Shown piece after piece: positions 46,237-50,082 of a stretch of DNA of 58,974 bases. Within the stretch, counting starts at the first letter, position 1, and each line of letters starts with the position of its first letter. A program made the position numbers and the translations under genes. The stretch comes from Promethearchaeota archaeon (GTDB lineage Archaea; Asgardarchaeota; Lokiarchaeia; Sigyniarchaeales; SOKP01). The notes beneath the pieces are model-generated. The model had not been told where the DNA came from and searched no databases. It was given only the letters and a program-made list of their open reading frames with translations. The stretch is from NCBI GenBank assembly GCA_048938445.1, contig JBHLME010000009.1, positions 1 to 58,974 of the forward strand. The letters are read 5' to 3'.

Positions 46237-47280
46237 TCATTTGGGATAATGAGCCGTGATGATATTATCTTTATAATTTGCTTTTAAAATTCTTACTGTT
46301 AATTCTTTTCCAATTAAATTATCTGAAAAAGTAAGTGGTTTTTTTAAGAGCACTTTAATTCCTTGATTTTCATCTAATTTTCCTATACATTCATTTTTCC
46401 AGCGTCCCTTTGAAACGACACTTATTTTTATTAAATCCCCTTTTTTAAATCTTGTACTAAAAACTGCTTTTCTTTTATGTATTCCAAAATCATTAGGTCC
46501 CATTTTTAATTTTATTTGATATTTAGTTTCGAGACTTGATAATTGCTTATAAAAATATCCCCATGACTTTGGACGTATTTTTTTTAATTTTCGACCTGTA
46601 TTGTATATCAGGTATTTTTGAATACCTAGCATTATGTTCTTTTCTGAATATCCCTCATTCCTCTTTTTTATCGTGAAATTAATTATATCTTCAATATCTT
46701 TATCATTTTGTCCAGGAAACCAGACTGGTGCGAGTAAGACATCAATGTTCGAATCTAAAAGTAAATTGATATTTTGGATTAATGTTTCCATATTATAATT
46801 AGTTATATTGCATAAATAATTAGCCATATCTCTATTTAAAGTGTTTAGACTTATGTTAATTCTCGTGAGGTTTACCTGTTCCAACTTTTTTATGATTTCA
46901 GTATTTAATAACAAACCATTTGATTGCATTGAAATTATTTTTACTCCAGAAAGCGTCCAAAGAGATTGAATTAACTCAAAAATTTCATTATATAATAAAA
47001 TCTCCCCATAAGGAGCTAGATGGATTTCAAGGTCATAATTTCCCTTTATTTCAATGACCTCCTTTATTTTTTCAATTAAATATCTTAATTCTAAGATGAA
47101 ATTAGTTTCATAATTTCCAGAGTTTACAAAACAATATTTACATTTCAAATTGCATAAAGTTATAGGTTTGATTTCTATAATATTTGTTCCGCGGTCAATA
47201 ATTCCAATAAAATCAACTCCAAATAGGGGAATCCCTGAAGTTTTATCAACCTTGATAACGTTTGATGCCATAGTGATCAT
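46237..47280 (-). CDS. radical SAM protein with C-terminal TRAM/OB-like domain
   Basis: IPLFG..FIGIIDRGTN.IE, CNLKCKYC, SMQSNG. Confidence 0.85.
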   Translation of the reverse strand: MITMASNVIKVDKTSGIPLFGVDFIGIIDRGTNIIEIKPITLCNLKCKYCFVNSGNYETNFILELRYLIEKIKEVIEIKGNYDLEIHLAPYGEILLYNEIFELIQSLWTLSGVKIISMQSNGLLLNTEIIKKLEQVNLTRINISLNTLNRDMANYLCNITNYNMETLIQNINLLLDSNIDVLLAPVWFPGQNDKDIEDIINFTIKKRNEGYSEKNIMLGIQKYLIYNTGRKLKKIRPKSWGYFYKQLSSLETKYQIKLKMGPNDFGIHKRKAVFSTRFKKGDLIKISVVSKGRWKNECIGKLDENQGIKVLLKKPLTFSDNLIGKELTVRILKANYKDNIITAHYPK

Positions 47281-48354
47281 TCATTCTATATATCGTAAAA
47301 TAGCAACTAAGGAACCCAAATCAACAATTTGTTTTCCTGTAGGTTGCTCGCTATTTAAAATATAAATTTTTCCCCCTGCATATTCTACATTATTAATTAA
47401 TTTTTCAATTTTCAGTTTATGTTCTTTTGAGGTACCCCTTATTAAAGTATCTGCTATGAATAGATCTTTAATTGATCCTTTTTCAGCAACCTCATTAATT
47501 TCCTTGAAACCAATCTTAATCATTTCATCATGAGTACTTAATAACTTAAAAATTTCTTGAATTTTCTCTGTTTCTTGAAAAATTTTTACTTTTTCTTTTA
47601 AATCAACTAATTCCTTTGATTTTAAAGATTCTAATATAGCACTCTCAGTGCCGGAACTCGCATGAATGCTTTTTATTTTAGGAAGATAACTTGATGCTCC
47701 TTTTTCTTTAAGATATTTTATAAATAGATCTCTCGTATTTCCTGGTCCGCATATTATTATGAGATTAATCTCAATATTTTTAAGATTTTCTTCAAGAATT
47801 CTACGAATGTCGGAAAAGAAATCCTCTAATGCTTTATTCCTATGGGTTTGCTCATATCTTTTTCCCGGGATGTTTTTTTTAATTGTAGAAATACGTTTAT
47901 GACTAAAATTTGTTATTTGGGAGATGGTTGCCAGACCTGTTTCTATAGCAATTATGATCATTATAAAGTTAGATTTAAATTTTGAAGATTTTTTTAATCT
48001 ATTTAATTCATTTTTTAACCATATTTCTTTTTTAATGGTTAATTTTTGGCCCGGTTCAACATTAAATGTATGATACGTTCCATAACTGACTAATTCGTCT
48101 GGACCTTCTATAATAGTACCTTTAACTCTTAATCTGTTTGAAAATTCATGAAATGCAATATCCTCAACTTTTAAAGTAAGAACCATCGGTTTTCGGGTGC
48201 CTTGGGTGCCTTCTTTTATAACTACTCTTCTAGTTGTTCTAGCAGTTGCTATGTCGCCTTTTGAAAGCACGTTATATAAGGTCCATAGGTCATTAAGATC
48301 CTCTACTCTTAGTGTAATTTCTCCTTTTTTTTGATCATTTTCTAAAATTTTCAC
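47281..48354 (-). CDS. pelA: mRNA surveillance protein pelota
   Basis: EDLNDLWTLYN, T.RRV, RLRVKG.I, GTYHT, GPG..R, LGSLVAILRY. Confidence 0.95.
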   Translation of the reverse strand: MKILENDQKKGEITLRVEDLNDLWTLYNVLSKGDIATARTTRRVVIKEGTQGTRKPMVLTLKVEDIAFHEFSNRLRVKGTIIEGPDELVSYGTYHTFNVEPGQKLTIKKEIWLKNELNRLKKSSKFKSNFIMIIIAIETGLATISQITNFSHKRISTIKKNIPGKRYEQTHRNKALEDFFSDIRRILEENLKNIEINLIIICGPGNTRDLFIKYLKEKGASSYLPKIKSIHASSGTESAILESLKSKELVDLKEKVKIFQETEKIQEIFKLLSTHDEMIKIGFKEINEVAEKGSIKDLFIADTLIRGTSKEHKLKIEKLINNVEYAGGKIYILNSEQPTGKQIVDLGSLVAILRYIE

Positions 48355-48493
48355 AGAATAATCTTATCCCATTGCTTTTTTTTTGATTATTATAACATTA
48401 CACATATTATAAAAAATAAGAATATTAGAAAAATTAAATTAAAAAAAGAAAAAATTTTGAAAAAAATTAATTTACTTTAATACCTATTTTGAG

Positions 48494-48646
48494 TTATTTA
48501 TCTCCTAAAGCTTCGCGAACTTTTTCGAGTTCTTGCCTACGCTTCTCTTTTTCTTCTTCTCTCCTCTTTAACTCCGCCTCATCGACCTTATCTAGAGATA
48601 CTCCCTTCTTAATTTCTTCAGCTAATTCTTTATCTACTGGAGCCAT
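48494..48646 (-). CDS. 50-aa microprotein with WH2/beta-thymosin-like motif (absent from ORF track)
   Basis: SD-like AGGTGTTGA before ATG; MAPVDKELAEEIKKGVSLDKVDEAELKRREEEKEKRRQELEKVREALGDK; coding-like composition inside AT-rich flanks. Confidence 0.75.
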   Translation of the reverse strand: MAPVDKELAEEIKKGVSLDKVDEAELKRREEEKEKRRQELEKVREALGDK

Positions 48647-48912
48647 ATATTCAACACCTTTTAATTTTAATTATTAGATAGCTATCATATAATTTTGTTT
48701 GAAAAAATAATAAAACATTTTTTATATAAATTTTCGCGATCACGAATTTTTTTGAAAACCATTAAAAGTTAGATTTTTATCCATTTAAGGAGGAAAATTC
48801 TTATTAGAACCTTCGCTATTTAAAATAGACAAATATTATATTTTAATTATTTAATAGATATTTTTATCGGTAAGAGATTCTTTTTGAAAAAATTTTTTTG
48901 TACTAATTTAAT

Positions 48913-50082
48913 TTATTCCAAGTCCTCTATAATAAATTTTCGATTATCATCTAATTCTTTCATAAATACTTTAATTGGCGTTGATTCTGTTATTTGGAAA
49001 TAACTTTCATCTCTAAAAGGTATTATTTCCACTATCCTGCAATCCATATTAAACCTATCTAATAAAGATATGAATTTTTCATTTAACGTGATATTTATGG
49101 GTAATAAAAGCTTGTTGTTTTTTATGGGCATATGATCAGGAGGTAAATTATATTTTTTTACCAAAATGTCTTGTAAGATGATTATATTTTCACTCCTCCC
49201 CTCGATTTCTGCATAAATTAGTAAGCCTTCTTTAGTAACCTTTTCATAGGGGAGTTTGATGGCTTTTGCACGTCTATAATATCTATTTTTAAGTTGATGG
49301 TAATCTTTAGCTATAATTGAACAGAAATGAATCTTAACCAAAACTCTCGATCTAATTTTTTTTATCATATCAATTGCAGTCATAAAACTATTTTCAACTG
49401 AAGCTATCGTTCCTTCTTTTAATTTAAAACCTTTATCCTTTAAATGTTGGCTATTGGGAAAACAATATTCAAATTCATTTAAATTTATGAATTCTGCTCC
49501 TATATTATCCAAATAAACAATGAAATCTTCCAGTTCTTTTATAGAATGAGATTCAGGAATGACAGGAACTTCAGCACCTACTGAAATCCCTTTATTTAAT
49601 GCATATTGAATGTTTGACCATTTATTTTTAGGAGGATTGAATCGAATTTCATCTAGACCTGCTTTTGAAAGTTTTTTGGCTATTTTATCATCAAAATTAA
49701 TCCCATTAGTATAGAGATGAACGTGAAAACTCTTACCTTTTTTCATTTTCACGTATTTTATATAGTCTAATGTCTTGTCTAAATTTGAATTGTAAAGGGG
49801 TTCACCACCAGTAATGCTCATTCCCTTAGCATCAATTTTATTGATTTCTTCAAGTAATTCTTCCTTATTACTTATTTTTATTTCGTTAGCATAAGTAGAA
49901 TCTTTACCCTTACGTTCTTCAGAAATTGGGCAATACCAAGAGCAATGCCCCGGAATTTGACAAATTCCGTTTAGAAAGAGTACTACTTTAGCTCCTTTTA
50001 AACATAATTCACAACCTTTGGGCATTCCCCTACCTTTTATATAAAATGTTCCTTCTTTTGACTCAATAATTTTCTTTTTCAT
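48913..50082 (-). CDS. radical SAM protein (COG2108-like)
   Basis: PKGCELCLKGAKVVLF.NG.C....CSWYCP, SITGGEP, HVHLYT, GLDEIRF. Confidence 0.85.
   Translation of the reverse strand: MKKKIIESKEGTFYIKGRGMPKGCELCLKGAKVVLFLNGICQIPGHCSWYCPISEERKGKDSTYANEIKISNKEELLEEINKIDAKGMSITGGEPLYNSNLDKTLDYIKYVKMKKGKSFHVHLYTNGINFDDKIAKKLSKAGLDEIRFNPPKNKWSNIQYALNKGISVGAEVPVIPESHSIKELEDFIVYLDNIGAEFINLNEFEYCFPNSQHLKDKGFKLKEGTIASVENSFMTAIDMIKKIRSRVLVKIHFCSIIAKDYHQLKNRYYRRAKAIKLPYEKVTKEGLLIYAEIEGRSENIIILQDILVKKYNLPPDHMPIKNNKLLLPINITLNEKFISLLDRFNMDCRIVEIIPFRDESYFQITESTPIKVFMKELDDNRKFIIEDLE

Follow-up and report, generated by a model that had tools for sequence, protein, structure and literature searches.

A 50-residue microprotein gene of Loki-type Asgard archaea and its likeness to the actin-binding WH2 and beta-thymosin modules

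Can an open reading frame of 50 codons, missed by the gene track of an Asgard archaeal contig, be a gene, and could its product be a regulator of actin? The question is raised by contig JBHLME010000009.1 of a Promethearchaeota archaeon, the 58,974 nucleotides of which, taken as a whole, are referred to here as the window. On its minus strand an open reading frame (ORF) of 50 codons begins with ATG and spans 48646..48497, the TAA stop lying at 48496..48494, and it encodes a microprotein with the sequence MAPVDKELAEEIKKGVSLDKVDEAELKRREEEKEKRRQELEKVREALGDK. The initial annotation, made from the letters of the DNA, had proposed a missed gene for a stand-alone peptide that binds actin monomers. The analysis reported here establishes that the ORF is a real protein-coding gene of a Loki-type Asgard archaeon, and makes its product a good but unproven candidate for an archaeal actin regulator. 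As to its mode of action, we lean towards regarding the 50-mer as the free-standing form of an order-specific module which directly binds Lokiactin monomers in a WH2/beta-thymosin-like manner, by a proposed mechanism that is set out below.

A conserved gene under purifying selection

A six-frame search of 61 related genomes with the single sequence gave a match in 56 of them at the loose threshold of E <= 10 and, at E <= 1e-5, in 31 of the 36 genomes of the window's own family, where the open frames are 48-81 codons long. Start and stop of the frame fall at the same places in 30 related loci. Amongst the 20 loci of the family, 19 have an open frame of 48-63 codons with a common start position; the exception (L017) has an 81-codon frame, in which a conserved inner GTG gives 52 residues. 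Conservation across Asgard genomes, on which the initial annotation had made its proposal depend, is seen in these fixed ends as well as in the pattern of substitution. The ratio of non-synonymous to synonymous substitution (dN/dS, Nei-Gojobori), calculated for eight in-register sequences with the out-of-register pairs involving L011 left out, is 0.03-0.16 in 11 of 12 unsaturated pairs and points to purifying selection. For the near-identical pair L013/L016 it is 0.23, with one change of each kind, and between the window and genome G002 it is 0.093, with 7 synonymous and 3 non-synonymous changes. In an alignment of 37 sequences K35, R36 and K42 are invariant, and I12, G15, L18, E30, E32, K33, E39, L40 and L47 are nearly so. 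A protein database search returned 38 proteins of 42-52 residues, all unnamed or labelled 'hypothetical', from sources given as Promethearchaeota or Thorarchaeota.

The surroundings of the frame also carry the signals of a gene. A Shine-Dalgarno-like site had been noted initially and is present as AGGTGT, 7 nucleotides before the ATG, without variation in the eight upstream regions of relatives that were aligned. In the same alignment a block C-x-AAAA-x-TTATA-x-ATAA is conserved about 80 nucleotides before the start; judged by what is generally known of archaeal promoters, it is probably the gene's own promoter, with elements resembling the transcription factor B recognition element (BRE) and the TATA box. 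The T-runs that follow the stop probably serve as an archaeal oligo-T terminator separating the microprotein gene from the next gene, which encodes pelota.

An alternative is that the 50 codons encode no functional protein and are either open by chance or part of a non-coding element within AT-rich spacer DNA, a view favoured by the fact that gene callers missed the ORF in the window and that a frame of 62 residues is open on the plus strand too. That plus-strand frame, however, is an antisense shadow, as had been supposed from the start: it is broken in 9 of the 30 orthologues and open in the other 21, and it is mostly open because the GAA/AAG/AAA codon content allows it. Moreover, the fixed ends, the low dN/dS, the conserved ribosome site and promoter box and the 38 database proteins all speak against chance, as does an 8.24-kDa protein with the mass of a relative, seen by mass spectrometry with 5 peptides. 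We regard this alternative as refuted.

Five of the 36 genomes of the family lack a clean match (G001, G003, G004, G005 and G032). In G001, G003, G005 and G032 pelota was not found either, and therefore the region is probably unassembled; in G003 a 16-residue fragment of the microprotein stands at a contig end. In G004, which is 90% complete, the 287 nucleotides between pelota and the contig end contain no microprotein frame.

Likeness to WH2 and beta-thymosin

The WH2 consensus comprises an amphipathic helix, usually with an LL pair, and then an LKKV/LKKT-like stretch. Residues 8-24 of the microprotein resemble WH2, and the amphipathic helix, the glycine and the L-x-[KR]-[VT] element are present at the canonical spacing (L8, I12, G15, L18, K20, V21). 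Residues 6-22 as first quoted, KELAEEIKKGVSLDKVD, were confirmed by translation.

When the family profile was searched against 177,635 PDB sequences, the best of 13 matches was 3m3n_W, an N-WASP construct with three WH2 copies, where profile positions 7-24 align to the stretches L-L-D-Q-I-R-x-G-x-Q-L-K-K-V; its E-value of 0.0028, like other whole-protein values, is good because it sums repeats that are copies of one another, and the single WH2 matches are weak (independent E 13-200). Spire (3mn7_S, E 0.15) and N-WASP (2vcp_D, E 0.28) were matched as well, and the remaining matches were de novo TIM barrels, helical designs, an M protein and two enzymes. Only 78 of 1.84 billion representative proteins reach E <= 0.001 with the family profile. 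Amongst the matches of that search is P0105 (E 2e-4, five stretches), which matches Pfam WH2 at 3.4e-23. An alignment by hhalign of the family with five WH2 repeats cut from P0105 gave a probability of 68%, P 4.7e-5 and a score of 22.1 over residues 8-30, although this is not an independent test because P0105 was picked by the same family profile. As a control, none of 300 column shuffles reached 22.1 (mean 7.05, standard deviation 1.88, maximum 16.5), and the reversed alignment scored 9.3. In the ESM Atlas, the nearest named cluster beyond the family's own has Pfam Thymosin on 52% of its members (score 0.86, 162 of 256 features), which is taken as a lead only.

Another protein, P0084 (762 residues), is a eukaryote-like FHA/PP1_bind/SAP protein with seven repeats of the form T-P-L-R-N-E-I-K-A-G-x-x-L-R-x-V. 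These match the WH2-like half of the profile at E 2e-8, and Pfam WH2 finds them at E 0.0021, below its cut-off.

The predicted shape is consistent with a WH2-like reading, as the initial annotation had anticipated. AlphaFold2, run with the 37-sequence alignment, models a helix at residues 6-14, a non-helical stretch at 15-22 (G-V-S-L-D-K-V-D) and a second helix at 23-49, with a mean predicted local distance difference test score (pLDDT) of 86, values of 91-94 in residues 21-40 and a predicted template-modelling score (pTM) of 0.42. A Foldseek comparison of the 50-residue model with the PDB gave no match at E <= 10, and a wide VIA-align search was uninformative, returning generic long helices and coiled coils only (best Z 4.0, root-mean-square deviation 4-13 A).

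Some matches were set aside. A 736-residue chelatase/vWA-like ORF on G000:C217 (E 0.2 in the single-sequence search) was taken as a compositional match, and the bacterial histidine kinases P0092, P0101, P0104 and P0114 match profile positions 23-40 only and are likewise compositional. These kinases carry up to 18 repeats of F-Q-N-E-E-K-E-K-R-A-A-E-L-x-I-A-N-K-E-L, probably a look-alike of the charged helix. Weak Pfam matches to DUF3006 (18 of 37 members, best E 0.012) and DUF7067 (7 of 37) were all below the cut-off.

Tandem and profilin-fused relatives and the link to Lokiactin

With the family profile at E <= 0.001, the module was found in all 25 sampled genomes of the window's family (f1) and in both of those of a second family of the same order (f2). 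In the window's own genome there is a single copy and, at the same threshold, no tandem protein. It is the larger relatives that connect the module with actin.

In the second family, about ten copies of a module of some 45 residues make up proteins of 479-497 residues (L026, L027, L028, L124, P0039 and P0094), which contain no other recognised domain and repeat the pattern h-h-x-E-I ... L-K-x-h about ten times. The AlphaFold model of L027, built from an alignment of 8 sequences only (pTM 0.18, mean pLDDT 66), has twelve helices, nine of them of 36-41 residues. The linking loops, with pLDDT < 50, coincide with the G-x-x-L-K-K-h sites, and no packing is seen.

Elsewhere the module follows a profilin domain, in one copy in L040, L041 and P0102, two in P0075 and four in P0063, and a further conserved C-terminal domain comes after the modules. 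The domain of L040 matches Asgard profilin structures (5zza_P, 1e-10; 7pbh_A 'Profilin', 4.8e-9; 5yed_A, 1.4e-7; 5zzb_A, 8.8e-7), of which 5ZZB is the Lokiarchaeum profilin-actin complex according to the accessible part of PMC10907219; Pfam Profilin on the module-fused domains stays below threshold (E 0.00025-0.0085). Further copies are joined to a Ras-type GTPase plus a ribbon-helix-helix (RHH) domain (L030), to leucine-rich repeats (LRR) plus RHH or LRR plus a zinc ribbon (P0093, P0109), to a RING-like zinc ribbon (P0098) or to RHH alone (P0103, P0106, P0112).

A published Lokiactin pull-down provides a second connection. The 55-residue stand-alone protein at L123 in genome G055 is letter-identical to a RefSeq protein of Candidatus Lokiarchaeum ossiferum, and masses computed from G055 ORFs were therefore compared with the co-immunoprecipitation (CoIP) sheet in Supplementary file 10 of PMC13716822. 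The masses in that sheet are monoisotopic, the actin row being given as 42.75 kDa against 42.747 computed for the 377-residue actin of G055. For the 488-residue ten-copy protein at L027 the computed monoisotopic mass is 56.414 kDa, and the sole row of 56.41 kDa is GNAMCCOK_04085 / UYP47766.1, 'hypothetical protein NEF87_004051', with 44 peptides, 70.5% coverage, 366 spectra and proteome rank 301. Its log2 actin/IgG ratio is 4.53 (adjusted p 0.0021), which makes it the fourth valid row, just above Lokiactin itself (4.44). Exact-sequence look-ups with 6 start variants and homologues gave no accession for the tandem protein, and two word-based homologue searches returned P0125 only. The tandem-module protein, as identified by mass match only, co-purifies with Lokiactin. 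The 69-residue GTG reading of the stand-alone gene at L123 (8.239 kDa) matches GNAMCCOK_02436 / UYP46132.1 (8.24 kDa, 43.5% coverage, proteome rank 519), where, for so small a protein, a chance coincidence of mass is quite possible.

The three valid rows at the top of the sheet are GNAMCCOK_00333 (37.53 kDa, log2 9.18), GNAMCCOK_02751 (67.05 kDa, 7.72) and GNAMCCOK_04250 (GTP cyclohydrolase 1, 5.11); a discussion of them was not seen in the accessible portion of the main text of PMC13716822. In that main text 'WH2' and 'thymosin' occur 0 times each, and the tandem-module protein is unmentioned.

Two independent lines link the module family to actin: it is fused to profilin, and its tandem form, by mass match, comes down with Lokiactin. 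The module resembles WH2 and beta-thymosin in its motif, its spacing and its predicted shape, and also in that it is found singly, in tandem and together with profilin. In the mechanism that we propose, the short amphipathic helix (V4, L8, I12) would dock on the barbed face of a Lokiactin monomer, in the hydrophobic cleft found there, and would be terminated by G15, and L18-x-K20-V21 would run extended over the actin surface like the LKKV/LKKT of eukaryotic WH2. The long charged helix (residues 23-49) might lie along the monomer or contact a second partner. The 50-mer would in this way hold or shuttle actin monomers, and the tandem and profilin-fused relatives may line up or deliver several of them.

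A number of observations weigh against direct, WH2-type binding, in addition to the limits given above for the PDB and hhalign scores. The curated models fail: a Pfam scan of the window's microprotein gave no WH2 or Thymosin match at E <= 1, and a PF02205 scan of its own genome does not match the ORF. Over the 37 members Pfam WH2 gave 1 match (E 0.079) with none reaching the 23.1-bit cut-off, and Pfam Thymosin matched 0 of 37 at E <= 10, so that the microprotein, judged by those models, falls outside Pfam WH2 and Thymosin. The WH2 pattern claimed in the initial annotation therefore stands in part, residues 8-24 being recovered by unbiased searches and the curated models failing. The position of the second hydrophobic residue of the WH2 LL pair is A, Q, E or K in the family. 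Conservation is highest in the C-terminal helix, an element that WH2 lacks; this E/R/K tail had initially been described as a single alpha-helix, but it is not a generic one of that kind: it is the best conserved part and carries K35, R36 and K42. The pull-down has its own limits. The putative stand-alone orthologue GNAMCCOK_02436 was detected and not enriched (log2 0.57, adjusted p 0.105), the samples were cross-linked with formaldehyde according to the accessible part of PMC13716822, and enrichment need not mean direct binding because the rows above GNAMCCOK_04085 include the GTP cyclohydrolase. The genes next to the tandem genes are non-cytoskeletal (an Ala_racemase_N-type gene, a HAD hydrolase, an AsnC regulator, or no match), and the RHH, LRR, GTPase and zinc-ribbon partners have no obvious tie to actin, which speaks against a simple interpretation. 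Lastly, the family profile at E <= 0.001 did not find the module in 123 genomes of 25 other Asgard families, and in the single-sequence search the other families of the same class give E 0.7-2 only. The module is restricted to one order of Loki-type Asgard archaea, which is not the order usually placed closest to eukaryotes.

Several of these points also fit a different view, in which an order-specific helical module, linked to the actin cytoskeleton or to signalling, acts via its charged helix E-x-E-K-x-K-R-x-x-E-L-x-K and has no WH2-type grip on the monomer. Its targets might be filament sides, profilin, gelsolin or others, and the WH2-like stretch might be convergent or coincidental. The better conservation of the C-terminal helix, the failure of the curated models, the lack of enrichment of the stand-alone relative and the capture of indirect partners by cross-linked pull-downs all suit this view; in addition, the copies linked to RHH, LRR and zinc ribbons vary the spacing before L-x-K-[VP]-D and keep the helix. 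Nevertheless I12, G15 and L18 of the N-terminal half hardly vary either, it is by this half that WH2 proteins are found, and the tandem protein repeats the pattern h-h-x-E-I ... L-K-x-h about ten times. A profilin with a WH2-like insert in Leishmania, described in the accessible part of PMC10907219, provides a precedent. On this evidence action chiefly through the charged helix appears possible but doubtful, and WH2/beta-thymosin-like binding of Lokiactin monomers remains the reading that we prefer.

The locus, related systems and significance

The features of the locus are collected in Table 1. The microprotein gene lies between a radical-SAM gene (48913..50082) and pelota, all three on the minus strand.

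Table 1. Features of the microprotein locus in window coordinates, with the basis of each assignment
Feature	Position	Strand	Basis
Microprotein coding sequence	48497..48646	minus	ORF reading, conservation with fixed ends, dN/dS
WH2-like half, residues 4-22: amphipathic helix (V4, L8, I12), G15, L18-x-K20-V21	48581..48637	minus	alignment, predicted structure
Long charged amphipathic helix, residues 23-49; most conserved residues E30, E32, K33, K35, R36, E39, L40, K42, L47	48500..48580	minus	alignment, predicted structure
Shine-Dalgarno-like AGGTGT, 7 nucleotides before ATG	48654..48659	minus	8/8 aligned upstream regions
BRE/TATA-like element, about 80 nucleotides upstream of ATG	48718..48736	minus	invariant column block, 8/8 relatives
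Three T-runs of 6-7 T each, 28-55 nucleotides after the stop	48441..48466	minus	sequence
pelota gene, downstream neighbour	47281..48354	minus	Pfam eRF1_1, eRF1_2, eRF1_3; context only
62-residue frame, antisense shadow	48489..48677	plus	broken in 9/30 orthologues; selection on the minus-strand frame

The microprotein-pelota pair is flanked by radical-SAM genes at 46237-47280 and 48913-50082 (minus strand), of which the downstream one has a weak TRAM match, and the block radical SAM / microprotein / pelota / radical SAM is retained across the window's family.

In 25 of 30 loci, that of the window among them, the microprotein gene immediately precedes pelota on the same strand. This holds for 19 of the 20 family loci, the exception being L017, where the sequence stops short of pelota, and for L033, L035, L036, L038, L039 and L044; the adjacency is absent in L032, L034, L037 and L043. 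In two other genomes a 55-residue stand-alone gene is arranged tail to tail with a gene for a ZPR1 jelly-roll domain (L122 in G044, 733-1416; L123 in G055, 1691-2314). This gene order is the sole basis for suspecting a small protein linked to translation, for example a partner of pelota, EF1-alpha or ZPR1; pelota and ZPR1 both work with EF1-alpha. However, the microprotein gene has its own conserved TATA-like box, T-runs precede pelota, and in five of five further genomes with pelota (G044, G045, G050, G053 and G055) no microprotein frame stands before it, so that neither an obligatory linkage nor a co-transcription with pelota was found; from the box and the T-runs the linkage is read as inherited order rather than as an operon. 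The ZPR1 pairs are convergent and hence not co-transcribed, no ribosomal or translation family was matched in the Pfam and PDB searches, and the domains to which the module is fused (profilin, GTPase, LRR) are not those of translation proteins. A role in translation is accordingly quite improbable in our estimate.

Some observations on profilin and actin genes of these genomes may be recorded here. A 'long profilin' of about 205 residues is widespread (L093-L119) and occurs in the window's genome too (L113; G000:C131, 1279-1911, minus strand). In it a G/S/A-rich linker joins an Asgard profilin domain to a C-terminal tail that is strongly conserved, I-D-P-Q-L-K-x-E-I-Q-x-F-L-D-W-I-K-D ... Y-Y-L-Q-Q-N-N ...; kinship of this tail with the microprotein family was unsupported by hhalign (probability 5.8%, 12 columns). 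ORFs of 401-444 residues with a profilin-type domain (G028:C6:646253-646639 and G006:C58:6637-7194) directly adjoin a second Lokiactin paralogue (G028:C6:647116-648192 and G006:C58:5422-6549) that is 84% identical to the main one. In the window's genome itself, Lokiactin is encoded in two pieces, one at the end of contig G000:C218 (L025, 1474-1614) and the other at the start of contig G000:C136 (L021, 1-1080). The two pieces overlap by 25 residues, and the full gene of G030 is identical over both. The piece on C136 is followed by a leucine-rich-repeat ORF that is truncated by the locus end and has at least 456 residues.

Amongst known actin-binding modules, WH2 (PF02205; N-WASP, Spire), which binds the actin monomer in the cleft formed by subdomains 1 and 3, has in common with the microprotein the short amphipathic helix, the G, the L-x-K-V and the I-x-x-G-x-x-L spacing. 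Both are found as single modules, as tandem arrays and next to other domains that bind actin (here the Asgard profilin), and the WH2-like half of the microprotein is predicted as a helix plus an extended stretch. Unlike WH2, the microprotein fails the curated model, the residue next to L8 is not hydrophobic, the second residue of L-x-K-V is variable (D in the window), a highly conserved charged helix of 27 residues follows the motif, and the module occurs in one archaeal order only. Beta-thymosin, ciboulot and actobindin (PF01290) are, like the microprotein, free-standing proteins of about 40-55 residues with a helix, an LKKT-like linker and a second helix, and have tandem-repeat relatives as it does. 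In comparison with beta-thymosin, however, the second helix of the microprotein is longer, starts right after K-V-D and has a conserved motif of its own, and Thymosin matches none of the 37 members. The 55-residue forms of family f2, judged by eye, are presumably even closer to thymosin.

Spire, Cordon-bleu and VopL/VopF are tandem-WH2 actin nucleators. The relatives of about 490 residues resemble them: they carry about ten copies of the module, are modelled by AlphaFold as a flexible string and include one enriched with Lokiactin by mass match. In contrast to these nucleators, the modules recur about every 45 residues, and long helices separate the L-K-K sites.

In Leishmania, according to the accessible part of PMC10907219, profilin has a WH2-like insertion that adds to actin binding. 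A WH2-like element and a profilin fold in one chain parallel the Asgard profilin-module fusions, although the Leishmania element is an internal insertion in a eukaryotic profilin and the Asgard proteins have 1-4 modules after the profilin and then a C-terminal domain. Asgard two-domain gelsolins contain a WH2-like L-x-x-V linker of four residues (LVDV/LKDV/LRRV) which contacts actin, as reported in the available portions of PMC9433394, PMC7444086 and bioRxiv 10.1101/2025.11.30.690169. That linker lies between gelsolin domains, whereas the microprotein is free-standing, lacks a gelsolin domain and has a helix before its motif. In Crenarchaeota, Arcadin-2 occupies the hydrophobic groove on an actin homologue, at the site to which WH2 and thymosin bind (PMC5173319, in the part available). 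By its description there, Arcadin-2 is set apart from the microprotein in sequence, lineage and actin (crenactin).

No description of the microprotein was found in the accessible parts of the literature on WH2 or thymosin in Asgard archaea and Lokiarchaeota, in which the gelsolin-linker motif is the only WH2-like element found described for Asgard archaea. A literature search by UYP47766, NEF87_004051, GNAMCCOK_04085 and UYP46132 found no mention either. The Lokiarchaeum motility paper, in the available portions of both its versions, presents gelsolins and profilins as the proteins by which these archaea regulate actin, and the corresponding part of the Nature version gives profilin, gelsolins, an ARF GTPase and BAR proteins as partners of Lokiactin (PMC13716822).

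In its most far-reaching form, the proposal would be that profilins and gelsolins are joined, in Loki-type Asgard archaea, by a third and overlooked class of proteins that regulate actin, namely true WH2/beta-thymosin-type modules that bind Lokiactin monomers, the 50-mer being an archaeal thymosin and the profilin-(module)1-4 and ten-copy proteins being Spire/Cordon-bleu-like deliverers or nucleators. Taken in full, this seems unlikely to us at present. A WH2/thymosin-like family, if true, would supply the archaeal actin system with a layer that it lacks so far, one that holds monomers and possibly nucleates, and with its profilin-fused and ten-copy forms it would bear directly on the extent of the pre-eukaryotic actin toolkit. 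If the module is homologous to eukaryotic WH2 and not convergent with it, WH2-based actin assembly would predate eukaryotes or would have been exchanged between lineages.

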